A stretch of DNA of 62,096 nt from Candidatus Nomurabacteria bacterium RIFCSPLOWO2_12_FULL_40_42 (GTDB lineage Bacteria; Patescibacteriota; Minisyncoccia; Phycocordibacterales; UBA9973), in the NCBI GenBank assembly GCA_001786195.1, contig MFVS01000017.1, forward strand, positions 1-62,096, read 5' to 3'. The translations under genes were made by a program, and so were the position numbers. The stretch's first letter is position 1. Every line of letters starts with the position of its first letter. The notes beneath the pieces are model-generated. The model saw only the letters and a list, made by a program, of their open reading frames with translations, was not told where the DNA came from and made no database searches. Shown here piece by piece: positions 2,045-47,015 of the stretch.

Positions 2045-2374
2045 ATGAATTACACAATTTCGGGCATTGTGATAAAAGGCGACGGATATGGCAGAAAACT
2101 TGGGTTTCCGACGGTGAATTTAAAAACACAGACTAAAGAGCTTCCGCCGGAGGGAGTATATGCTGGAGTTGTTGCGCTAGATGGTGTAGAGTACAGAGCT
2201 GGAATTGTAATAGGGCCTCGTGATAGAATAGAGGCACATCTTATAGGTTACGAAGGAGATGCATATGGAAAGACAGTGATACTCCAAACAAAAAAATTTT
2301 TGAGAAAATATCAAAAATTCGACACTGAACAGGAATTGATTATTCAAATAAAAAAAGATATAGAAAAATGTTAA
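2045..2374 (+). CDS. stand-alone riboflavin kinase domain protein
   Basis: 109 aa with GIVIKGDGYGRKLGFPTVNL, typical of the RibF C-terminal kinase domain. No FAD synthetase half. Confidence 0.8.
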   Translation: MNYTISGIVIKGDGYGRKLGFPTVNLKTQTKELPPEGVYAGVVALDGVEYRAGIVIGPRDRIEAHLIGYEGDAYGKTVILQTKKFLRKYQKFDTEQELIIQIKKDIEKC

Positions 2375-3354
2375 AAAATTACACCGGTCCAATTTTTATT
2401 CTTATTGCCGCGACTCTCTGGGCTTTTGATGGGCTGATTCGCCAGCATTTGTATACGCTGCCGCCGATTACCATAATATTCTTCGAGCACTTGATTGGTC
2501 TAGCGCTTTTGTTTCCTTTTGTTCACAAATATATTTTTAGCACAAAATTAACCAAGCGCGAATGGTGGCTGGTAGTTTTGATCGCGATTTTAAGCGGGCT
2601 TTTCGGGACTTTATGGTTTACGACTGCGCTCGGCAAAGTGCATTTTATTACCATATCCGTCGTCTTTTTGTTGCAGAAACTTCAGCCAATCTTTGCCATC
2701 ACTTCGGCCAGAATTTTTTTGAAGGAAAAACTCGATCAGCGATATGTCAAATGGGCCGTGCTCGCCATCATTGCCGCTTATTTCGTAACTTTCAAAAATG
2801 GATATGTTGATTTCTCGGCTGGCGGGGGAGGCAAAGAGACTCTGATTGCGGCGCTCTATGCGCTCGGTGCCGCATTTGCCTGGGGCTCTTCCACCACCTT
2901 TTCCAAAATGCTTTTAGGAAAAGTGGACCCCGTTAGAAGTCGCGCTCGCGACTTTGCCGCGAGTCCTTCGGACCGCGGCGCGGCTACTTCTAACGGGGTG
3001 GATTTTAAAGTTAGTACTTTTTATAGATTTTTAGTCACAATAATAGTCGCTCTGCCTGTCCTCTTTTTGTTTGGCAAGGGATCGAGTTTATCCGCGCCGA
3101 CTACTTCGCAATTTGGATTACTGGCGCTTATTGCTGTCTCGACCGGCATGGTGGCACTTTTGATTTATTACAAAGGGCTGGCTAAAACCCCGGTGCATAT
3201 TTCTACCATTCTGGAACTGACGTTTCCTTTTGTTGCCATTTTATTAGATTTTATCGTCAACCATACTGTTCTAGCTCCGTCTCAATGGCTCGCGGCGATC
3301 GTGTTGGTTTTTAGTATTTACCAGATTGCTAGGTTGCGTGAAAGCATTACGTAA
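2368..3354 (+). CDS. EamA/DMT family transporter
   Basis: 328 aa, about 10 hydrophobic helices in two halves, typical EamA-like composition. ATG overlaps the upstream stop. Confidence 0.8.
   Translation: MLKNYTGPIFILIAATLWAFDGLIRQHLYTLPPITIIFFEHLIGLALLFPFVHKYIFSTKLTKREWWLVVLIAILSGLFGTLWFTTALGKVHFITISVVFLLQKLQPIFAITSARIFLKEKLDQRYVKWAVLAIIAAYFVTFKNGYVDFSAGGGGKETLIAALYALGAAFAWGSSTTFSKMLLGKVDPVRSRARDFAASPSDRGAATSNGVDFKVSTFYRFLVTIIVALPVLFLFGKGSSLSAPTTSQFGLLALIAVSTGMVALLIYYKGLAKTPVHISTILELTFPFVAILLDFIVNHTVLAPSQWLAAIVLVFSIYQIARLRESIT
2928..3002. repeat. MITE-like palindromic element plus target duplication, in-frame in the EamA gene
   Basis: 14-bp perfect terminal IR ACCCCGTTAGAAGT (2927-2940) / ACTTCTAACGGGGT (2986-2999). 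Inner hairpins GTCGCG..CGCGAC and GTCC-TTCG-GGAC. GTGGA at 2923-2927 is repeated at 2998-3002. The inserted block is 75 nt = 25 codons. Confidence 0.75.
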
Positions 3355-5273: not shown

Positions 5274-5335
5274 GTTTTCTATGTGATATTTTTAGTTAAT
5301 GAAGCGCATAACTAAAATTAAGTAAAAAAGATTAA

Positions 5336-5371
5336 ATACCATAATAGCAACGGCCGTTGCTATTATGGTAT
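5336..5371. repeat. 36-nt perfect palindrome (family E), bidirectional-terminator-like
   Basis: ATACCATAATAGCAACGG|CCGTTGCTATTATGGTAT. It lies between convergent genes ending at 5273 (+) and 5450 (-), with an A-tract before and a T-tract after. Confidence 0.8.
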
Positions 5372-5449
5372 TTTGTAGTTAGGTGAAATCAAAAAGGGCG
5401 GGTCGTGTTTCAGACGATCTCCGCCCAGATGTTGCGTGGCCAGCGCGAT

Positions 5450-10793: not shown

Positions 10794-10824
10794 TTATGAA
10801 TCAAGAAACTAAAAATTGTCAAAA

Positions 10825-10860
10825 CCCCGAACGAAAGCAAAGCTTCGTACGGGGCAGGCT
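10825..10860 (+). repeat. mini-hairpin element, family C, copy C1
   Basis: CCCCGAACGAAAGC-AAA-GCTTCGTACGGGGCAGGC. Near-identical to the reverse complement of 46423-46459. Confidence 0.75.
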
Positions 10861-10870
10861 GTAAAAAGTT

Positions 10871-12013
10871 ATGGAGTATAAATCACAAAATGTGGTGTGT
10901 CAGAACTGTAAAGGCAATTTTATTGTAGAGCCGGAAGATTTTAATTTTTATGAAAAAATCAAAGTGCCGCCGCCGACATGGTGCCCCGCATGTAGAATGG
11001 TACGCAGAATGAATTGGCAGGGATATAGAATTCTTTACAAAAGAAAATGTGATTTTACTGGAGAGATGATATTTAGTGCTTATCATGCTGATTCCCCGTA
11101 TAAAGTTTATCGTCAAGACATCTGGTGGGGAGACAAATGGGATCCAAAAAGTTATGGCAAAGAAATTGATTGGAATAGACCATTTCTTGAACAATTTAAA
11201 GAGCTTATGTTGGAAGTGCCACATGCTTCCTTGGCTACTGAGCATTCAAGAATGGTTCGCAGCGATTATTGCAACGCAGCTTCAGAGTGTAAAGATTGTT
11301 ATCTCTGTTTTCGCATCACCGGTGGTGAAGATTGTGCATATTTGAATACTGTTGTTGATGGCAAACAGTCATTTGATTGTTCTTTTTTAAACCACTCGGA
11401 ACTTTGTTTTGGATCTACTAATATAAATAAATGCTACCAAGTATTTTTTTCACAAAATTGCGCAGAGTGCCATTCTGTTTGGTTTTCACGTGATCTAGTC
11501 GGCTGTTCGGATTGTGTCGGCTGTATCAATCTCCACATGAAGCAATATTGTATATTTAATCAGCAATATAGTAGGGAAGAGTATCAGAAAAAGTTGAAAG
11601 AGTTTGATTTTGGAACAAAAGAAAATATAAGGAATTTCGAAATGCAGACGGAGAAATTCATGAAGACACAGCCGAGAAGGCAATTTCATGGTGTGAAAAA
11701 TACAAATGTTTCTGGAGAATATATTTTCAACTCAAAAAATGTGCATGATTCATATATGCTTAGCAATGGTCTTGATTTGCGATACTGTCAATGTTTGAAA
11801 GTTGGACCAGCTTCTTCATCATACGACTGGTCGTTGTTTGGCGATAATTCGGAGTTGATGTATGAATGTTGTTGGTGTGGTCTTGATTCTAATGATGTGA
11901 AATTTAGCGCGTGGAATTATACAAACCACAATACTGAATATTGTTTTGGTGTTCACCACAGCGAAAATATGTTTGGTTGCGTAAATATTCCAAAAGGGGA
12001 GTATTGCATTTAA
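10871..12013 (+). CDS. Cys-rich zinc-ribbon protein, N-terminal 2/3 of a split paralogue of 47017-48678
   Basis: Collinear with residues 1-~385 of the 553-aa paralogue (CxxC..FYEK..P.P..CPxCR, WW.D.WD, CxxC repeats). Ends at TAA where the paralogue has Leu (CI*NKQY vs CILNKQY). Confidence 0.65.
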   Translation: MEYKSQNVVCQNCKGNFIVEPEDFNFYEKIKVPPPTWCPACRMVRRMNWQGYRILYKRKCDFTGEMIFSAYHADSPYKVYRQDIWWGDKWDPKSYGKEIDWNRPFLEQFKELMLEVPHASLATEHSRMVRSDYCNAASECKDCYLCFRITGGEDCAYLNTVVDGKQSFDCSFLNHSELCFGSTNINKCYQVFFSQNCAECHSVWFSRDLVGCSDCVGCINLHMKQYCIFNQQYSREEYQKKLKEFDFGTKENIRNFEMQTEKFMKTQPRRQFHGVKNTNVSGEYIFNSKNVHDSYMLSNGLDLRYCQCLKVGPASSSYDWSLFGDNSELMYECCWCGLDSNDVKFSAWNYTNHNTEYCFGVHHSENMFGCVNIPKGEYCI

Positions 12014-12629: not shown

Positions 12630-13472
12630 TTAAAGGCAGTCCGGATTAATGCCCAGTACGTAATTATTAATTAAATTTAATTGCGAGGAATATTCATCTC
12701 CCAAAAATCCTTTGATGTCTTCATCTTTGATTAGTCTTTTATATTCCTCCGTGAAATTTTGGGAAAGCGGAAGGTAAGACCAGTGCCATTTTTCTTCGTT
12801 GTAGCCAGTTGGTCTTTCTTGGCCTTTTATGGTGTAAGTTTGACAGAAACCAAAACTTGGCGCATTGGTTACGAGCCATTCATATACTTTTTTTCCGTTC
12901 GTAGTTTCAAAATAAGCAGAATTTGCGTTATTTATATCTATATCAGTGCCCCAGTGATGCCTGGATATGCCAGGGGCAGCGCTATATTCTAATATTTTTT
13001 TAAATCTCTCTTGTCCATCTGGAATGCTTTTCGATAAATCTTTTCCTTCCACAATTGTGAATCCTGTCCATTTTTTCTCCCATAGGTCTTTTTGATAATC
13101 AAAATTTCTGGTCGCGGAAGCTATCTGTAAATCAATTTTATCCCCATTAGCTGCTTCTGCCATTTTTAGAAAAGCACTCAAGGTTTCTTGTCTTAAATAC
13201 ATTTTGTTTTGATTCATTTGTTCGATTAGATATTGAGGTGGTATCAGAACAAAATCTTTTCTTTGCGCCGGATCAAATTTACCAGTTAGATAAATTTTTT
13301 GTTTAGCTTCTGCTTTTAGACGCTGTTCCAGTAAAAATTTCTGATACTTCGCTTCGTTTTCTTTTTCTTGCCGCAAGTCCAAAAAAGATGAAGTGAAATA
13401 GGGCATAAAAACAATAAACACGAGAGAGAATAAGGCAAGGCACAATATAATTGTGGAAATATGTTTATTCAT
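12630..13472 (-). CDS. M15-family (VanY/LdcB-like) D-Ala-D-Ala/LD-carboxypeptidase, membrane anchored
   Basis: N-terminal TM helix. SRHHWGTDIDI and EEKWHWSY are metal-ligand motifs of LAS/M15 peptidases. Confidence 0.75.
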   Translation of the reverse strand: MNKHISTIILCLALFSLVFIVFMPYFTSSFLDLRQEKENEAKYQKFLLEQRLKAEAKQKIYLTGKFDPAQRKDFVLIPPQYLIEQMNQNKMYLRQETLSAFLKMAEAANGDKIDLQIASATRNFDYQKDLWEKKWTGFTIVEGKDLSKSIPDGQERFKKILEYSAAPGISRHHWGTDIDINNANSAYFETTNGKKVYEWLVTNAPSFGFCQTYTIKGQERPTGYNEEKWHWSYLPLSQNFTEEYKRLIKDEDIKGFLGDEYSSQLNLINNYVLGINPDCL

Positions 13473-13549
13473 CCCGTACGAAATTATTTAAAATTAATAA
13501 ATTGATTTATCCATATACGAGACTTTCTTAGAAGGATTTCGTACGGGAT
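13471..13549. repeat. inverted-repeat element, family D, copy D1
   Basis: 14-bp perfect TIR ATCCCGTACGAAAT (13471-84) / ATTTCGTACGGGAT (13536-49). The left end supplies the AT of the M15 peptidase ATG (13472-13470). Confidence 0.75.
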
Positions 13550-13592
13550 TCACTCGAAAACAATAACATATTGGTGTATTTTAATCAAAAAA

Positions 13593-13601
13593 TGATATAA
13601 T
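13593..13601 (+). promoter_or_regulatory. extended -10 box TGaTATAAT, 8 nt before the mraY ATG
   Basis: Read by eye. No SD in the 8-nt gap. Confidence 0.4.
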
Positions 13602-13609
13602 AACGTGTT

Positions 13610-14665
13610 ATGTATTTTAACTTAGTTAAAATTTTTATGCCGACGGCTGTAGCCTTCTTTTTAGGACTTTTTTTTACGCCATTTGCCACTCATTTTTTTT
13701 ATAAATATAAAATGTGGAAAAAATATTCGCGAAGTATCGGGGCTACTAATTCTGACTTTCAAAAAATAAATAATGAAAAAGAAGAATTGAAAACTCCGCG
13801 AGTGGGGGGAATAATCATCTGGATTTCTGTTTTAACAACCGTTCTTATTTTTTATTTAGTGTCTATTTTTTTTCCGGGGGCGAACAGTACTGAATTGAAT
13901 TTCTTGAGCCGCAATCAAACTTTGATACCTCTTTTCACCCTTTTGATCGGGTCGCTCATCGGACTGTGGGATGATTTTATTCAAATTTACGGCACTGGCA
14001 AATTTGCCCGCGATGATAAGTCTTGGCGCAAATGGAAAATTTTCATTATCGCTTTTATGTCTCTTTTTATCGGTCTTTGGTTTTTTTATAAACTAGGTTT
14101 GACCTCGATCCATATTCCTTTTGGAGGAGATATTAATTTAGATATTTTGATCATTCCATTTTTTATTATAGTCGCGCTAGCCACTTTCTCTGGCGGGGTG
14201 ATTGACGGCATCGACGGACTCTCTGGAGGAGTCTTGGCCTCTATTTTTGGCGCGTATTCGGCAATAGCCTATGTCAACCATCAGATGGACATCGCCGCTT
14301 TTGCGGGAGTTATCACTGGAGCAATTTTGGCTTTTTTGTGGTTTAATATTCCGCCAGCTAGATTTTACATGGGGGAGACGGGAATCATGGGGCTTACTCT
14401 CACTTTGGCGACTTTGGCATTTTTAACTGACTCGGTTTTAATCCTACCGGTTGTCGCTCTGCCGCTTGTTCTTACTTCTCTTTCGGTTATTTTGCAAATA
14501 GCTTCCAAAAAGTTAAGAGGCGGCAAAAGATTATTCCGACTGGCTCCACTACATCATCATTTTGAAGCGATCGGCTGGTCTCCCTACAAAGTGACGATGC
14601 GCTTTTGGATTTTTTCTACCCTCTTTGCCATTATCGGTATAATTTTAGCGGTTATCAGCAGATAA
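13610..14665 (+). CDS. mraY: phospho-N-acetylmuramoyl-pentapeptide transferase
   Basis: 351 aa polytopic. GLWDDFIQI, GVIDGIDGLSGG, APLHHHFE motifs. Confidence 0.95.
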   Translation: MYFNLVKIFMPTAVAFFLGLFFTPFATHFFYKYKMWKKYSRSIGATNSDFQKINNEKEELKTPRVGGIIIWISVLTTVLIFYLVSIFFPGANSTELNFLSRNQTLIPLFTLLIGSLIGLWDDFIQIYGTGKFARDDKSWRKWKIFIIAFMSLFIGLWFFYKLGLTSIHIPFGGDINLDILIIPFFIIVALATFSGGVIDGIDGLSGGVLASIFGAYSAIAYVNHQMDIAAFAGVITGAILAFLWFNIPPARFYMGETGIMGLTLTLATLAFLTDSVLILPVVALPLVLTSLSVILQIASKKLRGGKRLFRLAPLHHHFEAIGWSPYKVTMRFWIFSTLFAIIGIILAVISR

Positions 14666-14680
14666 CACCAAAATAATATA

Positions 14681-15787
14681 ATGACAACCAGAGAAAATAA
14701 AATTGACAGATTTTTTTTGATAATCGTTGGCCTATTGCTTTCTCTCGGAGTGTTGATATTTATCTCGGCCTCTTTGGGAGTTTTGGCTAAAAATGAAAAA
14801 CTTTTTTACTCCGTGCTCTTCAGCCAGCTGGTTCTCGGATTAGGTTTAGGATTGGTCGGCATGTATCTTTGTTTAAAAATTCCTTACAAATTCTGGCGCA
14901 AATATTCCTTATTTATTTTTTTAGCTTCCATCCTTATAACCGCTGCGGTTTTTATCCCGCACTTGGGTTTTCGCCATGGAGGAGCGCAGAGATGGATAGA
15001 GATAGGCGGTTTTTCTTTTCAGCCGGTGGAGTTTTTAAAATTTGGATTTGTTATTTATTTTGCATCCTGGTTATCATGGGCAAAAAATAGGGTGCAGGAT
15101 TTTAAATTTGGAATCTTTCCGTTTGGCATAATGCTGGCGATTATCGCTCTTATATTATTTAAACAGCCCGACATTAAAAGCTTTATTTTAATTGCGACAA
15201 CCGGCATCGGTATGTTATTTATTTCTGGAGTTCCTTTTAAATACATTTTGGGTGTTGGGTTGGGGGCGGTATTTCTTTTAGGAGCTCTAATTTTCTTTAC
15301 GCCATATCTGCAAGAGCGGGTAAAAACTTTTATTGACCCGTCGGCTGATCCGCGCGGGTCTTCATATCAAATTCAGCAGTCGCTTATTGCTCTCGGAAGC
15401 GGAAAAATATTCGGGCGCGGATTCGGGCAAAGCATCCAAAAATTCAGTTATCTGCCGGAACCGCAGGGGGATTCCATTTTTGCCGTTTTGGGAGAAGAAT
15501 TTGGTTTTGTCGGAGCGTTTGGAACGATATTTCTTTATTTGCTTTTTGCTTTGCGAGGGTTTCGGATTGCCAATAATTCTCCGGATGCCTTTAGTAGACT
15601 TTTAGTTTCGGGAATTGTTATACTGATTATCGCGCAGTCCTTTATGCACATTGCGTCGATCACCGGAGTTTTCCCTTTGACCGGAGTACCGCTGCCATTT
15701 ATGAGCCTCGGAGGCACTTCACTCATGGTGTATCTTACAGCGATCGGCATGGTGCTCCATATATCGAAATTTTCTATAAGGAAATGA
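14681..15787 (+). CDS. ftsW: SEDS protein FtsW/RodA (position implies FtsW)
   Basis: QPVEFLKF, GSGKIFGRGFGQS, PEPQGDSIFAVLGEEFGF, PLPFMSLGGTS. Lies between mraY and murG. Confidence 0.9.
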   Translation: MTTRENKIDRFFLIIVGLLLSLGVLIFISASLGVLAKNEKLFYSVLFSQLVLGLGLGLVGMYLCLKIPYKFWRKYSLFIFLASILITAAVFIPHLGFRHGGAQRWIEIGGFSFQPVEFLKFGFVIYFASWLSWAKNRVQDFKFGIFPFGIMLAIIALILFKQPDIKSFILIATTGIGMLFISGVPFKYILGVGLGAVFLLGALIFFTPYLQERVKTFIDPSADPRGSSYQIQQSLIALGSGKIFGRGFGQSIQKFSYLPEPQGDSIFAVLGEEFGFVGAFGTIFLYLLFALRGFRIANNSPDAFSRLLVSGIVILIIAQSFMHIASITGVFPLTGVPLPFMSLGGTSLMVYLTAIGMVLHISKFSIRK

Positions 15788-15907
15788 ATCCCGAACGAAA
15801 TCGCGGACGCATAGAAAATAAAAAAAATTATGAAATTGATTAAATATATTATAAATAATAAAAAGGACGAACAAGCGTAAGCGTACGCGTCCTATTTCGT
15901 ACGGGAT
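15788..15907. repeat. inverted-repeat element, family D, copy D3
   Basis: ATCCCGAACGAAAT (15788-801) / ATTTCGTACGGGAT (15894-907), plus inner GGACGC/GCGTCC. Begins right after the ftsW TGA. The right end supplies the AT of the murG ATG (15906). Confidence 0.7.
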
Positions 15908-17048
15908 GAAAATTGTTTTTACAGGCGGAGGAACAGGCGGGCACTTTTACCCGATTATCGCCGTTGCCGAACGGGTCAATCAAATAATCGACCACGAAAA
16001 TATCCTTGGAGGCAAACTCTATTACATTTCCGATAGCCCTTATGACAAGGAAATGCTTTTTGAAAATGCTCTTACCTTTGAAGAAATTAAAACTGGCAAA
16101 ATGCGTACTCATGTAACCCTGAAAAGTTTCTTCTTAAATTTTCTCGACATCTTTAAAATTTTCTTAGGCACTTTAAATGCAATCTACAAAATGTTTTCTA
16201 TTTATCCGGACGTGGTTTTCGGCAAGGGCGGCTATGTGTCACTACCGACAATTATAGCCGCATTTATTTGGCAGATTCCGGTGGTGATCCACGAATCCGA
16301 CTCTGCTCCCGGACGGGTAAACAAGTGGGCTGGGCGTTTTGCCAAAAAAATCGCTGTGTCTTTTATTGAGGCTGCCGATTATTTCCCCAAAAAGCGAGTT
16401 GCTTGGACTGGCCAACCGATTCGAGCGGAAATAGAATATCCAGCTAATCGGCGCGAAGCGCTGGATTATTTTAAATTAGAAGAAAGTCTACCAGTGATTT
16501 TGATCTTGGGCGGATCACAGGGTGCGGAACTTATCAATAATACTGTGTTAGATGCCTTATCTCGGTTTGTTAATAATTATCAGATTATTCACCAAACAGG
16601 AGTCCGGAATTTTAAAACAGTTACGGATATGGCCGAAGTTGTGTTGACGGATAATCAATATAAATCCAGATATACTTCGATGTCTTTTCTCAATTCCATT
16701 TCGCTCAAAATGGCGGCCGGCGCGGCGACTATTATTATATCCCGAGCCGGCTCGATGCTGTTTGAAATAGCGTCATGGGGCGTACCGTCAATTTTGATAC
16801 CGATAACCAATTCCAACTTGGATCATCAAAGAAAAAATGCGTTCAATTATGCACGAGTCGGAGCTTGTACTGTAATCGAGGAGATGAATATGACTGGGAA
16901 TATTTTAAGCGAAGAAGTGGAAAGAATAATTGAAGATAAAAAGGTCTATGCCGCTATGGCGCAGAATGCCAAAGCGTTCAATAAACCCGAGGCGGCCACC
17001 AAAATCGCCCAGGCCTTGGTAGATATCGCTTTGAGCCATGAGGGATAA
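15906..17048 (+). CDS. murG: UDP-GlcNAc:lipid I GlcNAc transferase
   Basis: FTGGGTGGHFYPIIAVA N-terminal motif. 380 aa GT28 architecture. Confidence 0.95.
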   Translation: MKIVFTGGGTGGHFYPIIAVAERVNQIIDHENILGGKLYYISDSPYDKEMLFENALTFEEIKTGKMRTHVTLKSFFLNFLDIFKIFLGTLNAIYKMFSIYPDVVFGKGGYVSLPTIIAAFIWQIPVVIHESDSAPGRVNKWAGRFAKKIAVSFIEAADYFPKKRVAWTGQPIRAEIEYPANRREALDYFKLEESLPVILILGGSQGAELINNTVLDALSRFVNNYQIIHQTGVRNFKTVTDMAEVVLTDNQYKSRYTSMSFLNSISLKMAAGAATIIISRAGSMLFEIASWGVPSILIPITNSNLDHQRKNAFNYARVGACTVIEEMNMTGNILSEEVERIIEDKKVYAAMAQNAKAFNKPEAATKIAQALVDIALSHEG

Positions 17049-17056
17049 ATTTTTTA

Positions 17057-17065
17057 TGCTATTAT
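17057..17065 (+). promoter_or_regulatory. extended -10 box TGcTATTAT, 6 nt before the gltX ATG
   Basis: Read by eye. A 6-nt gap implies a leaderless or near-leaderless mRNA. Confidence 0.4.
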
Positions 17066-17071
17066 ATAAGA

Positions 17072-18505
17072 ATGTCAGATACAAAAATTGTAACCAGATT
17101 TGCGCCTAGCCCGACGGGTTTTATTCATGTGGGAAACATTCGAACGGCTCTTTATGCCTGGCTTTGGGCTCGCAAAAATAACGGAATTTTTATCCTGCGG
17201 ATTGAAGACACGGACAAGGAGAGGGAAGTGGCGGGTTCAATTGACCATATTCAAAAATCTCTCAAGTGGCTGGGTTTAAATTGGGACCAGGGACCGGACG
17301 TAGGCGGGCCTCATGCGCCCTATATTCAGTCAGAAAGATTAGATATTTATAAAAAATATGCAGAGATTTTGATTAAAAAAGGCCATGCTTATCCTGATCC
17401 TTACACCGAAGAAGAAGTTGAAAAATTTAGGCAAGAGGCACAGGCAAATAAAAAACCTTTTTTATACCGAGAGCATCGGCCGGCTGATTTTGGGGTTTGG
17501 GATGGCACCAGACCGCTTCGTTTTAAAGTTCCGGAAATAAAAAGTTTTAAATGGAATGATCTGGTGCAGGGCGATTTGTCTGCCGGAGAAGAAGCGCTAG
17601 ATGATTTTATTTTGATCAAGAGCGACGGATATCCGACTTATAATTTTGCGCATATAGTGGACGATATCGAAATGCAGGTCACGCACGTCGTACGCGGACA
17701 AGAGTTTATTTCTTCGACGCCGAAATTTTTATCTGTGTATCAAGCACTCGAAGTTGCTCCGCCTATTTTCGTGACCACTCCTCCGATATTAGGAGAAGGT
17801 GGAAATAAAAAACTAAGCAAGCGCGACGGCGCCAAAGATATTTTGGATTATGAAAAAGAAGGATACTTGGCCGGCGCCATGATCAACTACCTGGCCTTCT
17901 TGGGTTTTAATCCCGGAGGAGAAAAAGAAGTGTACAGCCGGGCAGAATTAATCCAAGTCTTTGATTTGAGTAAGATTCAGCGTTCTGGAGCCATGTGGAA
18001 TGATGTAAAGCTGGATTGGTTCAATAAAGAGCATATGAAAAGGCTGCCGCAAGAAGAAATAAAAAAAAATATTTTAGAATTGTTGCCCGAGAAAATTAAA
18101 AATCCGAAATTAATTCCGGTTATTTTTGAGCGAATTTCCAAATGGGGCGATGTCAAAGCAATGGTTACGAGAGGGGAGTTAGATTTATTTTCTAAGACGC
18201 TCGAGATAGATAAAAATAAATTCAAAGAAAAAATTTTGTACAAAAAAACCGCTCCGGAAAAAATTTCGGAAAATTTAAAATTAGCGATCACAGTTCTGAA
18301 AAGTTTAAATAAAAATAATTTTACCGCCGAAAATGTAAAAACTGCTTTAATGGAAATTGCAAATAATTTAGAGAGTAGGGGAGAGCTATTGCACCCGGTG
18401 CGCTATGCTCTCTCCGGAGCCGACAAATCCCCCGACCCATTTTTAATAGCTTCTATTTTAGGAAAAAATGAAACTTTATCCCGCCTACAAAAAGCTATTG
18501 AATAG
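17072..18505 (+). CDS. gltX: glutamyl-tRNA synthetase
   Basis: PSPTGFIHVGNIRTALYAW (HIGH-type) and KLSKRDG (KMSKS-type). 477 aa. Confidence 0.95.
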   Translation: MSDTKIVTRFAPSPTGFIHVGNIRTALYAWLWARKNNGIFILRIEDTDKEREVAGSIDHIQKSLKWLGLNWDQGPDVGGPHAPYIQSERLDIYKKYAEILIKKGHAYPDPYTEEEVEKFRQEAQANKKPFLYREHRPADFGVWDGTRPLRFKVPEIKSFKWNDLVQGDLSAGEEALDDFILIKSDGYPTYNFAHIVDDIEMQVTHVVRGQEFISSTPKFLSVYQALEVAPPIFVTTPPILGEGGNKKLSKRDGAKDILDYEKEGYLAGAMINYLAFLGFNPGGEKEVYSRAELIQVFDLSKIQRSGAMWNDVKLDWFNKEHMKRLPQEEIKKNILELLPEKIKNPKLIPVIFERISKWGDVKAMVTRGELDLFSKTLEIDKNKFKEKILYKKTAPEKISENLKLAITVLKSLNKNNFTAENVKTALMEIANNLESRGELLHPVRYALSGADKSPDPFLIASILGKNETLSRLQKAIE

Positions 18506-19808
18506 AGCCAGAGCTTTAGACTCTTACCAGAGTCTAAAGCTCTGGCTAGTGGTGATATTTTTGGGAATTTTATTATTTATTCCCGCGTTTTTTTCTTATG
18601 CGCAAACGGCGCAGGAACTGCAAAATAAAATAAGCCAAAAGGACTCTGATATTACCAAACTGGAAGAAGAAATAAAAATTTATCAAGCGGAGCTCACTAA
18701 TATCGGACAGCAAAAAAATTCTTTAAGCAAATCAATCCAAGAACTGGATCTGACCAGGAAAAAACTAGTAGCGGATATAAGTATAACTCAAAAGAAAATT
18801 GATAAAACAAATTTTAAAATACAAGATTTAAGTTCTGATATAGGCAATAAACAAAATTCTATTGCCAATGGCGTAGATTCTATTTCAGCGGGTATTAGAA
18901 ACACTAATGAATTTGAACAAGGTAGCCTGCTTGAAACTTTGCTCTCCGAAAATGATTTTTCGGTTATTTGGAATGATATAGACAACATTGCCACTGTTCG
19001 GGAAAAAATCATTGAAGATGTAAATAAATTAAAACTAATCAAAGGCGAGCTAGAGGATACTCGAGCAGAAACTATAGATGCAAAAAATGAACTTGTTCTA
19101 CTTAAATCTAAACTTTCGGACCAACAGAAAATAGTTATCCAAAATACCAATGAAAAAAATAAACTTCTAAAAGAAACCAAAAACAACGAAGCTAATTATC
19201 AAAAATTATTAAAGGAACAAATAGCTAAGAAGTTAGCCTTTGAAAAAGAATTGCGAGATTATGAAGCCCAGTTGCAATTCATCCTTGATCCTTCAAAACT
19301 TCCTTCGGCCGGAGTGCTTTCCTGGCCGCTCGATAAAGTTTTTGTGACTCAAGAATTTGGAGCCAAAACCGGACCTCACCGCACTTATACGAGCGGACAT
19401 TCTGGCACGGATTTTCGAGCTCGCACCCCATTGCCGATTTATTCTATGGCCGAAGGAATAGTGAAAGGAGTTGGCGATACGGATACGAGCTGCTCCGGAG
19501 TCTCTTTCGGTAAATGGATTTTTATTGAATACAATAATGGCCTCTCAAGCACCTTTGGGCATCTTTCTCTGATCCGCGTCAGAGAAGGACAAAAAGTGTC
19601 AAGAGGGGAAGTGGTCGGCTATACCGGAGGTACTGGCCGAGTCACCGGGCCACATTTGCATGTTTCCTTATACGCTTCTGGCGCAGTGCAGATATCCACA
19701 GTGCCGAGTATATCTTGTCCCGGAAAGATCCTAAAGCAGCCGATTGCCGCCATCAATGCCTATCTCGACCCGATGTATTATTTGCCTCCATACATACCAT
19801 CTCCTTAA
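18468..19808 (+). CDS. M23 (LytM) peptidase with N-terminal coiled coil (EnvC-like)
   Basis: HSGTDFRA and GYTGGTGRVTGPHLHVSLY. The start is uncertain. ATG 18468 overlaps gltX and reads through the hairpin. In-frame GTG 18549/18552 right after the hairpin would give a signal-peptide-like N-terminus. Confidence 0.85.
   Translation: MKLYPAYKKLLNRARALDSYQSLKLWLVVIFLGILLFIPAFFSYAQTAQELQNKISQKDSDITKLEEEIKIYQAELTNIGQQKNSLSKSIQELDLTRKKLVADISITQKKIDKTNFKIQDLSSDIGNKQNSIANGVDSISAGIRNTNEFEQGSLLETLLSENDFSVIWNDIDNIATVREKIIEDVNKLKLIKGELEDTRAETIDAKNELVLLKSKLSDQQKIVIQNTNEKNKLLKETKNNEANYQKLLKEQIAKKLAFEKELRDYEAQLQFILDPSKLPSAGVLSWPLDKVFVTQEFGAKTGPHRTYTSGHSGTDFRARTPLPIYSMAEGIVKGVGDTDTSCSGVSFGKWIFIEYNNGLSSTFGHLSLIRVREGQKVSRGEVVGYTGGTGRVTGPHLHVSLYASGAVQISTVPSISCPGKILKQPIAAINAYLDPMYYLPPYIPSP
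18506..18547 (+). other. 19-bp perfect hairpin immediately after the gltX stop
   Basis: AGCCAGAGCTTTAGACTCT - TACC - AGAGTCTAAAGCTCTGGCT. No adjacent T-run. Confidence 0.7.
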
Positions 19809-19872
19809 AAATATGATAAAATCCGGTAGTAGAACTTTGCAAAAAGTCTCACTACCGGATAAAATAAAAACT

Positions 19873-20073
19873 ATGCTAAATAAAATAAAAAATAAACAAA
19901 GCGGATTTTTAAAAATTATAATTATAATTGTCGTTGCGCTTCTTTTGATGCGATATTTTGGTATCACTTTCTCCGGCATTTTAGATTACTTCCACTTAAC
20001 CTGGATTGATGTCATCGGCTGGCTCAAAAAGGCCTTGGATTGGTTCAAGGATCTATTTAATAGTGTGAAGTAG
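19873..20073 (+). CDS. small membrane protein (66 aa)
   Basis: ATG 19873 lies downstream of a 10-bp hairpin (19821-19860). One hydrophobic helix (FLKIIIIIVVALLLM). No family recognised. Confidence 0.35.
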   Translation: MLNKIKNKQSGFLKIIIIIVVALLLMRYFGITFSGILDYFHLTWIDVIGWLKKALDWFKDLFNSVK

Positions 20074-20079
20074 TATAAA

Positions 20080-20149
20080 GCAGATTGTGCGACATTTTAA
20101 TGATCGTACAATCTGCGCTATGTTTGCGATATAGGATGTCGCAAACATA
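20080..20149. terminator. two tandem hairpins at a convergent gene junction
   Basis: GCAGATTGT (20080-88) / ACAATCTGC (20108-16) and TATGTTTGCGA (20119-29) / TCGCAAACATA (20139-49). Confidence 0.4.
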
Positions 20150-20171
20150 TATTGTGGGACACGCCTATATT

Positions 20172-20573
20172 TTATCTGCACGAGCTTGAAAGCGTATACC
20201 CTGCCCGCTCGGCCTCTTCTTTGGTGGTGAAGTAGACTCTATTTTCTTGTTTGATAGTTTTGCCGCCCGAACATCCTATTGAATAATATTTTGTCCCGCG
20301 ATTAGAAGCGAAAAAAGTTTTTATGGTGTTTGCAGTAGAAGTTGTTTTGGGAATATTATTTACAACCGAGACTGCATTTGCCGTTTGGGTCTCCGTCTGG
20401 CCAGGGTCTTTATTAGGATATTCGATCTTTATACCGGAAGAGCTATTTTGCTTTGATAGTCTTCCCAATTCAAATGATCCCAAACCGACCAAAATAACGA
20501 CCAAAACTATCAAAATATCTTTCCCCTTTTCGCTCCCAATCCAGTTAGTTATTTTTGGCTTGATTTTTTCCAT
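20172..20573 (-). CDS. membrane-anchored protein with a small C-terminal Cys-pair domain
   Basis: N-terminal TM, low-complexity linker, then YYSIGCSGG..VYFTTKEEAERAGYTLSSSC. I cannot name the family with confidence. Confidence 0.55.
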   Translation of the reverse strand: MEKIKPKITNWIGSEKGKDILIVLVVILVGLGSFELGRLSKQNSSSGIKIEYPNKDPGQTETQTANAVSVVNNIPKTTSTANTIKTFFASNRGTKYYSIGCSGGKTIKQENRVYFTTKEEAERAGYTLSSSCR

Positions 20574-20640
20574 GATTTCAGCTATACTCTCAATGTTGTT
20601 TTTATTATAACCTATAAACTAAAACCTACAACCTAATTTC

Positions 20641-20913
20641 ATGGCCCATAGAAAAGCCGGCGGTACCGCCAAAAATTTAAGAGATTCAAACCCAAAATAC
20701 CTAGGTATTAAGCTGACTCATGGCCAAATGGCCCAATCTGGCTCTATTATCGTCCGCCAGAGAGGCACAGACGTCATGCCAGGCGTAAACGTCGGTCTAG
20801 GCAAGGATCACACCCTTTTCGCTCTTAAAGGTGGTATAGTCAAATTTGGCTCTCGTCGCAAAACCTCCTTCAACGGTAAGACAGTAGTCAAAAAATTAGT
20901 GAGCGTAATTTAG
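20641..20913 (+). CDS. rpmA: 50S ribosomal protein L27
   Basis: [32 protein letters not shown], canonical bL27. No rplU upstream. Confidence 0.95.
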
Positions 20914-20936
20914 AAGCATTCTCTGTAATTTTTTTT

Positions 20937-20974
20937 ATTACCATAATAGACACGGCCGTTGCTATTATGGTAAT
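20937..20974. repeat. palindrome family E copy
   Basis: ATTACCATAATAGACACGG|CCGTTGCTATTATGGTAAT, between convergent genes ending at 20913 (+) and 21003 (-). Confidence 0.75.
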
Positions 20975-21002
20975 AGACATCTACTTTAGTTGAGTAAAGT
21001 AA

Positions 21003-21278
21003 TTAGCTGTGCATTGCAACATTCTTTGGCGTACTGGTTTTTTCAGTGTCGGCTATGGAATTATAAAATTCCTGCTCCGCTTCTTCTAGATTATAATCGT
21101 TTTCTACTGGAATAACCTCGGGGGCATATTTTATTTTTTTAATTTCCTCTGTTATTTTCGACACATCCTCTTTGGTCGCCCAAGTCGTCTTACCTCTCTT
21201 CTCAAAAAATCTGCTCAAAAATAAATTCAACAGTAATCCGACAATCGTGCCAATAAGAAATGTGTTTAAGAAATCCAT
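21003..21278 (-). CDS. small membrane-anchored protein (91 aa)
   Basis: N-terminal TM (FLIGTIVGLLLNLFL). The ATG abuts repeat D2. Confidence 0.5.
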   Translation of the reverse strand: MDFLNTFLIGTIVGLLLNLFLSRFFEKRGKTTWATKEDVSKITEEIKKIKYAPEVIPVENDYNLEEAEQEFYNSIADTEKTSTPKNVAMHS

Positions 21279-21357
21279 CCCGTACGAAATAATATTAAAC
21301 TAATAAATTTGACCATACTCATATATTAAACTATTTTAGCAAAATTTCGTACGGGAT
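21277..21357. repeat. inverted-repeat element, family D, copy D2
   Basis: ATCCCGTACGAAAT (21277-90) / ATTTCGTACGGGAT (21344-57). The interior aligns with D1 (..TAATAAATT..). The left end supplies the AT of ATG 21278. Confidence 0.75.
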
Positions 21358-21361
21358 CCAT

Positions 21362-21805
21362 TTAAATTTTTTCTATAATGAGTTTAAACGAGGACTTTTT
21401 GCCCTTAATGGAAATAGGGATTTCAAACCCCCCTACTTGCTTGATTGGTTTCTCGAGGATAATAAATTCCTCGCCAATATCGGCATGATTTTGCGCCTTC
21501 ATGGCCTCGATAATTTCTTTTTTGTGGACTTGGGCGAAGAGATGCCCTTTTTCGTCAGCTTTTTCCTTGATGGTGATGACTTTGCCTTTGATGGCCTCCA
21601 AATTTTTAAGTAGCAAGCTCTCTTGCACCTCCCTTTCGATGGCAATTTCTTTTTGGCGCAGTTCGAGTTCGGTTATCGCTTTCGGCGTGGCTACTACTGC
21701 TAGTTTTCTCGGCAGCAAAAAATTTACCGCATAGCCGTCATTAACCTCCTTGGTGTCATTTTTTCTGCCCACTCTTGGCACATCTCGTAAAAAAATTACT
21801 TTCAT
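21362..21805 (-). CDS. rplI: 50S ribosomal protein L9
   Basis: MKVIFLRDVPRVGRKNDTKEVNDGYAVNFLLPRKLA, canonical bL9 N-domain. 147 aa. Confidence 0.9.
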   Translation of the reverse strand: MKVIFLRDVPRVGRKNDTKEVNDGYAVNFLLPRKLAVVATPKAITELELRQKEIAIEREVQESLLLKNLEAIKGKVITIKEKADEKGHLFAQVHKKEIIEAMKAQNHADIGEEFIILEKPIKQVGGFEIPISIKGKKSSFKLIIEKI

Positions 21806-46158: not shown

Positions 46159-46968
46159 TCATTTCTTGAAATAATTAATCGCGTTTTTAAAAACTTGAAA
46201 CCCTGCCCCCTGTTTGGGAACTTTTTTATTCTGATACCACGTGGGGTTTTGAAAGGAAAACATACCCCGTTCTGGATGCGGCATCAGGCCTAGGACTCGC
46301 CCATTATACGCTAAAACCCCGGCAATTCCAAAATCCGAGCCATTTGGATTTTCTTCCAGATTTTGAAACTTACAAATTTTCCCCTTTACATATTTAAAAG
46401 CTATGACCGATGTTTCTTTTTTGCCTGCCCCGTACGAAGCCGAAGGCTTTCGTTTGGGGTCAATAACATACCGCCCTTCCCCATGAGCAATAGGGAGAGA
46501 AATTTTCTTTATTCCTCTTAGCCACGCCGAAGCCTGGGCGGAGGCGGGTATTTCCAAATCCACCCACCGATCAATATACTGTCCATTTTTATTCTGCGCC
46601 AAAGCGCCGGGCAAGATTCCGAGATTAGTCATAATTTGAAATCCGTTACAAATGCCGATTGCCAGAGTGTCGCGAGACAAAAATTCTGCCAGTTCTTTAG
46701 CCAAATGATTTTTAAATTTATTGGCGTAAGCTTTACCGCTTCCCGTGTCATCGCCATAAGAAAACCCGCCGGGGAAAACTAGAATTTGATATTGTGAAAG
46801 CATCTTGGGCTTGGCGATCAAATCATTAATATGCACAATGTCCGCGACTATGTTCTCTTTTGCTCCCGCAGAATCAAAAGCAAACTTCGTTTCTTCTTCG
46901 CAATTGAGCCCGTAACCTGACATTATTATAATTTTTGGATTGGTTATTTTTAATTTATTATTTTTCAT
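46159..46968 (-). CDS. purQ: FGAM synthase glutaminase subunit
   Basis: GICNGFQ (Cys) and MPHPER (His). Start set to ATG 46968. The alternative ATG 47004 lies inside palindrome F3. Confidence 0.9.
   Translation of the reverse strand: MKNNKLKITNPKIIIMSGYGLNCEEETKFAFDSAGAKENIVADIVHINDLIAKPKMLSQYQILVFPGGFSYGDDTGSGKAYANKFKNHLAKELAEFLSRDTLAIGICNGFQIMTNLGILPGALAQNKNGQYIDRWVDLEIPASAQASAWLRGIKKISLPIAHGEGRYVIDPKRKPSASYGAGKKETSVIAFKYVKGKICKFQNLEENPNGSDFGIAGVLAYNGRVLGLMPHPERGMFSFQNPTWYQNKKVPKQGAGFQVFKNAINYFKK
46423..46459 (-). repeat. mini-hairpin element, family C, copy C2, in-frame inside purQ
   Basis: Minus strand CCCCAAACGAAAGCC-TTCG-GGCTTCGTACGGGGCAGGC, encoding PKRKPSASYGAG. Near-identical to C1 at 10825-10860. 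Confidence 0.75.
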
Positions 46969-46981
46969 GTTTCTTTTCTTT

Positions 46982-47015
46982 AGTGACAAATCTAGCGGCC
47001 GCATAATCTGTCACT
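46982..47015. repeat. palindrome family F, copy F3
   Basis: AGTGACAAATCTAGCGGCCGCATAATCTGTCACT, between the stop of the Cys-rich gene (47017) and the purQ ATG. Confidence 0.75.

Follow-up and report, generated by a model that had tools for sequence, protein, structure and literature searches.

MITE-like inverted-repeat elements at start codons in Patescibacteria

Three inverted-repeat elements (D1, D2, and D3) were analyzed in a 62,096-nt stretch of Candidatus Nomurabacteria DNA, hereafter called the window. We consider it highly probable that they are copies of a non-autonomous MITE-like mobile element, which takes ATG-N-A as its target and duplicates 5 bp of it. By structure the element is a MITE, with an unusual target and an unusual orientation behavior. 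The terminal repeats, the duplication, the mobility, the association with start codons, the strict orientation, and the taxonomic range of the family are documented below. Target duplication explains a striking start-codon pattern in a simple way. That the start codon is part of a duplicated target matters for the calling of gene starts, and for not taking the repeat as a regulatory signal.

Three elements and their flanking duplications in the window

The 14-mer ATTTCGTACGGGAT occurred six times in the window with 0-1 mismatch, and these occurrences formed three inverted pairs, which located all three copies and their shared 14-bp termini where the original prediction had placed them. All further matches in the window had 2-3 mismatches, and the total of 16 matches was reached in 0 of 100 shuffles. 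The arms of the elements were CCCG(T/A)ACGAAAT...ATTTCGTACGGG, and the interior that D1 and D2 had been said to share was found to belong to one subfamily (Table 1). As originally noted, one terminus of each copy was followed by a G, creating the ATG that opens the VanY/M15 peptidase gene (D1), a 91-aa ORF (D2), or murG (D3). The genes around the three copies included mraY, ftsW, gltX, L27, and L9. The window, a JGI contig from a groundwater metagenome, was also found as sequence in other assemblies.

The element had been thought to supply the first two bases of the start codon. This proved to be a misreading, as the ATG is part of the duplicated target. Read in the direction of the gene, the flanks were GTGAA-T / ATGAA for D1, ATGGA-T / ATGGA for D2, and ATGAA-T / ATGAA for D3. 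The terminal AT...AT counted in the 14-bp repeat was present in the sequence, but most of it is duplicated target and does not belong to the element. The 5-bp direct repeats that flank each copy were absent from the earlier description. D1 was the only element whose upstream copy (GTG) differed from the functional one (ATG).

Removal of each element together with one repeat would plausibly restore the junction that preceded insertion. At D2, the rplI stop codon TAA then directly abuts the ATG, and at D3 the stop of ftsW and the start of murG overlap as ATGA, with AAGGA just upstream. At D1, a promoter-like TTGATT-17-TATTGT is left 6 nt before GTGAA, and this leaderless-type arrangement is what VanY would have had before D1 was inserted. 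The motif TANNAT-N6-ATG, which the original prediction had described from elsewhere in the window, was indeed about twice as frequent there as in shuffles (23 versus 11.6).

The minimum-free-energy RNA folds of D1, D2, and D3 all contained the predicted 14-bp terminal stem beside the AUG, with z-scores of -2.8 to -3.4, and the stem of D3 was lengthened by GGACGC/GCGTCC. The core CCCG(A/T)ACGAA was also recovered, as claimed, in two mini-hairpins (10826-10853 and 46429-46458). No flanking duplications were found at either mini-hairpin, and the second one sits in a loop of variable length among the homologues of its ORF.

Table 1. Coordinates of the elements and associated features in the window
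Feature	Position	Strand	Description
D1 core	13473..13547	minus	75 nt, interior subfamily 'group 11'
D1 5' arm (gene orientation)	13536-13547	minus	
D1 3' arm	13473-13484	minus	
D1 T before 5' arm	13548	minus	
D1 upstream duplication copy	13549..13553	minus	GTGAA
D1 downstream duplication copy	13468..13472	minus	ATGAA, start codon + 2 nt of VanY/M15
D1 internal third copy of arm motif	13509..13522	minus	TCTCGTATATGGAT, complementary to 5' arm
Promoter-like site apparently displaced by D1	13560..13588	minus	TTGATT 13588-13583, 17 nt, TATTGT 13565-13560, 6 nt, upstream GTGAA
VanY/M15 peptidase gene	12630-13472	minus	opened by D1-adjoining ATG
D2 core	21279..21355	minus	77 nt, subfamily 'group 11'
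D2 arms	21344-21355, 21279-21290	minus	
D2 T (plus-strand A)	21356	minus	
D2 upstream duplication copy	21357..21361	minus	ATGGA, directly after rplI (L9) stop
rplI (L9) stop codon	21362-21364	minus	TAA
D2 downstream duplication copy	21274..21278	minus	ATGGA, start of 91-aa ORF
91-aa ORF	21003-21278	minus	opened by D2-adjoining ATG
D3 core	15790..15905	plus	116 nt, long subfamily
D3 arms	15790-15801 (CCCGAACGAAAT), 15894-15905	plus	
D3 T before 5' arm	15789	plus	
D3 upstream duplication copy	15784..15788	plus	ATGAA, holds ftsW stop TGA (15785-15787)
D3 downstream duplication copy	15906..15910	plus	ATGAA, start of murG
murG	15906-17048	plus	opened by D3-adjoining ATG
Sibling element	2923..3002	plus	arms CCCGTTAGAAGT...ACTTCTAACGGG; direct repeat GTGGA 2923-2927, 2998-3002
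Mini-hairpin, same core	10825..10854		CCCCGAACGAAAGC AAAGC TTCGTACGGGG; 17 nt upstream of ORF at 10871
Mini-hairpin, same core	46428..46459		inside GATase-like (PurQ-type) ORF 46159-47004

Family range, target duplication, and mobility

The family unit was defined as a T followed by CCCGTACGAAAT, a variable interior of 40-90 nt, and ATTTCGTACGGG. Public metagenome contigs were scanned for the two arms at a spacing of 40-70 nt, which gave at least 117 loci, and the same scan over 185,579 species representatives (one genome per species) gave 60 loci, all of them in MAGs of Patescibacteria. By our own calculation, fewer than one match was expected by chance. The hosts in the genome scan were Nomurabacteria, Paceibacterota, Wildermuthbacteria, Niyogibacteria, Spechtbacterales, and bins labelled Saccharibacteria. 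Altogether, at least 158 unique copies were gathered, their sources being metagenomes of groundwater and sediment together with about 40 MAGs of Patescibacteria. No copies in other phyla were present among the matches listed, and searches of viral contigs and of PLSDB plasmids gave no arm matches. About 30 further copies in the same loci belonged to a sibling family, which has arms CCCGTTAGARRY...ACGGG and flanks of this kind as well. Neither the D family nor the sibling family (arms CCCGTTAGA...) extends beyond Patescibacteria, where the lineages concerned are of the Parcubacteria/Paceibacteria type. As the arms do not vary over whole classes of Patescibacteria and do not occur in other organisms, they provide a lineage marker and a handle for tracking populations.

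The cores of the copies listed were 62-116 nt long, with a sharp peak at 75-77 nt and minor classes at 62-69 and 114-116 nt. Their interiors fell into three large subfamilies, of which the largest included D1 and D2, the long D3 type, and about 25 singletons, with the arms common to all. Four DNA runs of the source population yielded contigs with extra D3-type copies elsewhere, and read depth over D3 was about 4x; a clean empty D3 site was not found in these contigs.

A T stood directly before CCCG in 94 of 94 unique oriented copies, and the 5-nt flanks were identical on both sides in 76 of these 94 among the matches listed. The commonest repeats were ATGGA, ATGAA, ATGTA, ATGAG, and ATGCA, and a few were 6 bp long (ATGCAA). 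Elements with interiors 92-97% identical were found at unrelated genes with different flanks (ATGAA, ATGGA, ATGAG, ATGTT, and ATGCAA); D3, for example, flanked by ATGAA, was 97% identical to a copy flanked by ATGGA (L083:8844). The direct repeat was therefore generated anew at each insertion. At one locus, two tandem elements had one repeat in common, as is expected if an insertion regenerates its own target.

The comparison of orthologous loci proposed by the original prediction revealed filled and empty sites for at least six genes. One gene was filled at locus L046 and empty at L085 at 94% amino acid identity, the empty site reading TTGACA-17-TGATATAAT-CATAGG-ATGGATATC, in which CATAGG is a 6-nt spacer. 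murG was filled in the window and empty in L078 and L060 (76% and 73% identity), and mraY was empty in the window (ATGTATTTT at 13610) and filled in L060. One and the same gene start carried different subfamilies in different genomes, indicating independent insertions. With respect to vertical inheritance of the insertion at the DUF4446 gene, the identities of protein and interior did not correlate (rho of 0.13), with a high alignment baseline for these identities.

Start codons, orientation, and alternative explanations

An ATG was present at the junction in 141 of the 158 unique copies listed, so that the census confirmed for further copies the association with start codons seen in the window. 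In 87 of 94 copies the downstream ATG opened an ORF that was 60 aa or longer, and five further ORFs were cut by contig ends. In-frame read-through from upstream across the element was seen in only 2 of 124 cases. Among the 118 sites with enough flank, TAnnnT was located 5-8 nt before the upstream duplication copy in 73 (leaderless-type promoters) and the stop codon of the preceding gene was abutted in 45; both features were present at 17 sites and neither at another 17. A MITE targeting start codons, one of three roles originally suggested, is thus strongly supported by the more than 150 dispersed copies with their target duplications, by orthologous sites with and without an element, and by the frequency of ATG at the junctions.

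We propose that the element inserts at ATG-N-A and duplicates 5 bp, or occasionally 6, which would leave one copy of the start codon on either side. The downstream ATG would then serve as the working start of the gene, and the upstream copy would remain with the sequence before it, which at D1 is a leaderless-type promoter and at D2 and D3 the stop codon of the gene that precedes. Because the duplication leaves both neighboring genes intact, insertions at start codons would survive, and the start-codon bias would result from two factors, a target preference for ATGNA and survivorship in genomes where genes are very densely packed. The coding density was at least 83% in a crude call that ignored ORFs under 80 aa. 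Gene starts, again by a crude gene call, made up 15-24% of the ATG(nA) sites that do not disrupt an ORF, versus about 90% observed, and were thus 4-6 times over-represented among non-disruptive sites. Target motif and survivorship may therefore be too little to account for the bias, and the insertion machinery or selection for expression probably contributes as well.

The sibling element in the window was located in frame within a 328-aa transporter-like ORF (2368-3354), to which it adds exactly 25 aa that the homologues lack. Element and repeat together (2928-3002) make up 75 nt, in frame and free of stops, which accounts for the survival of this copy. Such an in-frame survivor inside an ORF indicates that the target is defined by sequence and not by 'start-codon function'.

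The orientation of the element relative to the gene was fixed in 93 of 93 copies despite the perfect inverted arms, which is unlike the prediction of a symmetric DDE-type mechanism. The 12-nt arms had 0-1 mismatch in every copy, and counting the closing T/A pair and the A-T from the duplication extended the inverted repeat to 13-14 bp. Copies within one genome had interiors 70-87% identical and arms that were exact, and a search of 1.31 Mb with an interior-only HMM recovered 103 copies, all of them with at most one arm mismatch. This invariance suggests that the arms are constrained by more than the simple decay that follows insertion.

If the hairpin works as a cis-acting leader, whether from the outset or by later change, selection for this function would explain both the strict orientation and the invariant arms. 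It could switch translation, be a site of processing, or act as a portable leader. This explanation is compatible with a mobile origin, and we regard it as a real but tentative possibility. The predicted folds of all three copies place the A and U of the AUG within the 14-bp stem. The base before CCCG covaried with the first base after CGGG (T/A 174, C/G 11 representing about seven independent cases, and mismatched 4), a pattern that a plain 5-bp duplication would not produce. The fifth base of the repeat was A in 85 copies, G in 9, and never C or T, so that pairing with the U of AUG is always possible; the stem is effectively 14 bp with the host bases included. The proposed translational control hairpin may or may not be at work. 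The stem does cover the A and U of the AUG and its closing pair covaries, but the start codon is unchanged in close orthologues that lack the element, and the element is therefore dispensable by a standard that the original prediction had set for itself, namely absence from orthologous loci with no change in gene start.

Further structure was found in the interiors. The 3' arm recurred inside every subfamily as (T)ACGGG(A), giving the 5' arm two possible partners, and in subfamily 11 the 5' arm and the internal copy paired in 86.9% of cells, versus 19-52% in slid controls. The inner hairpin of subfamily 8 showed compensatory changes, with 12 G.U versus 0 A.C pairs, indicating that the sense strand is the one on which this structure is important, in the form of either RNA or single-stranded DNA. 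Covariation outside one hairpin was however statistically weak, and Rfam returned no match at gathering score in the window or at E<=5 in 13400-21400. Elements precede essential genes (dnaA, dnaN, and murG), so that expression must pass through them, but the genes served have no function in common. A conserved upstream ORF or coupling distance was rejected, as upstream ORFs were 7-47 aa long, varied in frame, and had scattered stop positions. An internal promoter was likewise rejected as a general feature, since a consensus scan gave one weak site only, inside D3, and the -10-like TAGAAT hexamer of subfamily 8 forms half of a covarying stem and varies at the critical T and A.

With regard to expression from inserted copies, the retained promoter would produce transcripts that start with the upstream AUG and include the hairpin. 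Ribosomes could load at this 5'-terminal AUG, melt the stem, and re-initiate at the main AUG, or RNase III-type cleavage of the 14-bp stem could produce a near-leaderless mRNA. No match was obtained in the public RNA runs searched for the locus. As most target sites are leaderless-type promoters, the element would give leaderless genes an 80-nt structured leader that still begins with AUG, and this conversion would be a natural experiment on translation start in these uncultivated bacteria. A more elaborate proposal, which we consider rather doubtful, is a start-codon-homing mobile leader adapted to leaderless expression, with ribosomes passed from the first to the second AUG. The duplicated ATG would in this case keep a 5'-terminal AUG at the old transcription start, allowing ribosomes still to load, and the real AUG would lie beside the first at the foot of the 14-bp stem, to be reached by re-initiation, shunting, or RNase III trimming. 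Essential genes would need the fixed orientation, the invariant arms, and the pairing with the start codon for their expression, and these features would be kept for that reason. A stronger form of this proposal would have the insertion machinery read a feature of gene starts and not only ATGNA.

The enzyme that mobilizes the element would be an ATG-directed integrase. Neither a transposase domain nor a long, autonomous partner bounded by the arms was found in 1.3 Mb of flanking loci. All long-range arm pairs were combinations of neighboring small elements, and Pfam searches on the ORFs of the two most element-dense loci returned housekeeping genes only. Movement as single-stranded DNA by an HUH/Y1-type enzyme, which would make the family an IS200/IS605-derived palindrome-associated element, is improbable: the 5 nt flanking the element on both sides covary from site to site, and the surroundings of the copies showed neither a TnpA nor a TnpB gene. 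Such movement would nevertheless explain strand and orientation specificity, insertion at a fixed pentanucleotide, and one-strand structure, and it agrees with an orientation that is strict relative to the asymmetric target, a left end always 3' of ATGNA, and a hairpin that tolerates G.T on one strand only.

Enzyme-free spread by template switching of the replication fork on ATGNA microhomology, beside a stalling hairpin, has very little probability in our view. Direct repeats do bracket a strong hairpin and the 1.3 Mb of loci yielded no transposase, but the different flanks of near-identical elements rule out that the flank was copied along with the unit by microhomology, and the invariance of the arms across whole bacterial classes argues for recognition by a protein. 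Finally, the arms can hardly be the operators of an envelope or peptidoglycan regulator that the original prediction had envisaged for wall genes: all three window copies adjoin envelope-related genes, two of them in the mraY-ftsW-murG neighborhood, but the downstream proteins of 115 copies matched 118 Pfam families, most unrelated to the envelope, and half-sites 50-90 nt apart, flanking duplications, and sites absent from close orthologues do not fit an operator. The families included DUF4446 (11), RRF (6), MurJ, MurG, GreA, L9, DnaA, DnaN, Pol III alpha, UvrD, and tRNA synthetases, among others, and one genome had an element at both dnaA and dnaN in its origin region. The functional diversity of these genes speaks against an envelope regulon.

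Comparison with known systems

The D elements are shorter than about 800 bp without coding for a transposase, have terminal inverted repeats of at least 10 bp and a flanking duplication that varies among copies, and occur in many dispersed copies with presence/absence polymorphism at orthologous sites, all of which are characteristics of MITEs. Neither a start-codon-targeting MITE nor a Patescibacteria MITE was found in the searchable literature, including a MITE survey of 183,232 genomes (PMC11602168) and a 2024 review (PMC10969869), and the arm sequence had no relevant occurrence there. No description of the element was found in the searchable literature or in Rfam. The lack of an Rfam match, together with downstream genes that are not of one function, also excluded a known structured RNA family.

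Correia elements (CREE/NEMIS) of Neisseria are bacterial MITEs with 26-bp inverted repeats, unrelated in sequence to the D arms, and a TA duplication, and are found in either orientation. Promoters within them and cleavage by RNase III have been reported, and their hairpin is co-transcribed with the downstream gene; we know of no relation of Correia elements to start codons. The D elements resemble them in being short and non-coding, with terminal inverted repeats and a short flanking duplication, and in being dispersed beside genes. They differ in the ATGNA target, the start codon within the duplication, the fixed orientation, and the Patescibacteria hosts, and the arms CCCGTACGAAAT and the duplication ATGNA exclude that they are Correia elements.

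IS200/IS605 elements are not known to produce a target duplication and have subterminal hairpins instead of a terminal inverted repeat. The D family shares with their derivatives a hairpin-rich, strand-specific structure and insertion beside a fixed sequence of 4-5 nt, but its site-specific 5-bp duplication and true terminal inverted repeat rule out a palindrome-associated element of the IS200/IS605 type. Duplications of 4-5 bp are made by Tn3, Tn7, Mu, and the IS1380 family, and the ends of IS1380 begin with CC. Compared by description only, the D family is similar to all four in duplication length and to IS1380 also in its CC-starting ends; to our knowledge, none of them targets start codons. 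REP/BIME sequences are extragenic palindromes of 20-40 nt located downstream of genes without target duplication. The D elements, at gene starts and with duplications, are not of this type, and the two mini-hairpins without duplications could be.

Hairpins bracketed by identical short sequences are also known from translational bypass (phage T4 gene 60 and mitochondrial 'byp' inserts) and from ribosome shunting in viral leaders. The likeness is one of functional analogy only, in that two repeats come to lie side by side at the base of a stem, and unlike in bypass inserts the repeats of the D family are start codons and not sense-codon take-off and landing sites. No other bacterial mobile element is known to us that targets start codons in a single orientation and is also tolerated before dnaA, dnaN, murG, and similar genes, and the literature searched contained none.

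Rickettsia palindromic elements (RPE) are MITE-like, mostly intragenic elements of about 100-150 bp that insert in frame into ORFs (PMC10969869). Like RPE, the elements described here are palindromic mobile repeats tolerated in essential genes of reduced genomes, and the sibling copy at 2923-3002 is likewise an exact in-frame insertion of 25 aa. Unlike RPE, the D family is found overwhelmingly at the first codon and is not translated within the protein.

Unoccupied targets and start sites

The mraY start in the window (13596-13612), which reads TATAAT, 8 nt, and then ATGTATTTT, was a target site without an element, and the orthologous start in locus L060 was occupied. The arrangement TANNAT-N6-ATG was found at 23 sites in the window versus 11.6 expected (for example at 17060-17074, before gltX), an excess that agrees with this organism having many leaderless genes. 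At one orthologous site, present in five loci (L048, L050, L057, L119, and L130), the element was flanked by ATCTA-C ... G-TCTAT and adjoined an ORF of 368 aa encoded on the opposite strand. The open frame of this ORF begins GTAGAT, and the junction had no standard start codon.

Additional and clustered copies

Contig depth over D3, the D-element copy upstream of murG, was about 4x that of its flanks (window 15740-16053; four DNA runs that sample the same environment), and the D3 contigs in these runs carried several different flanking sequences. Other copies of the long D3 type were therefore present in the community. In L049 (13238-13354), two elements were arranged in tandem with one shared ATTCAT repeat as their sole separation; this pair is the product of a later insertion into the target regenerated by an earlier one. 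In one Paceibacterota genome, the segment around the replication origin (L129, 3178-7028; dnaA, dnaN, yidC) had five elements within 3 kb, with both the D and the sibling families counted.

An in-frame element, palindromes, and mini-hairpins

Repeat features in the window outside the D elements
Feature	Window position	Sequence	Location
Sibling-family element	2923-3002	arms CCCGTTAGAAGT/ACTTCTAACGGG; direct repeat GTGGA	328-aa transporter-like ORF
40-nt palindrome, perfect or near-perfect	5334-5373		
40-nt palindrome, perfect or near-perfect	20936-20975		
Mini-hairpin	10825-10854	D-element core; no flanking duplication	17 nt upstream of ORF at 10871
Mini-hairpin	46428-46459	D-element core	GATase-like (PurQ-type) ORF

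The sibling-family element, which has arms different from those of the D elements, lies in frame in its host ORF and encodes VDPVRSRARDFAASPSDRGAATSNG; exactly these 25 residues were missing from the homologues in L074, L029, and L008. The mini-hairpin in the GATase-like ORF encodes ...DPKRKPSASYGAG..., and at this position the L170 homologue had a different sequence that was 6 aa shorter. This hairpin may be another in-frame insertion, though the loop there is variable.

The two palindromes appear to constitute another repeat family in the window. Their common sequence was ATACCATAATAG(C/A)(A/C)ACGG/CCGTTGCTATTATGGTA.

The remaining mini-hairpin is contained in a possible 22-aa ORF starting at 10797. 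In relation to the D elements, it may be either a deletion derivative or a separate repeat.
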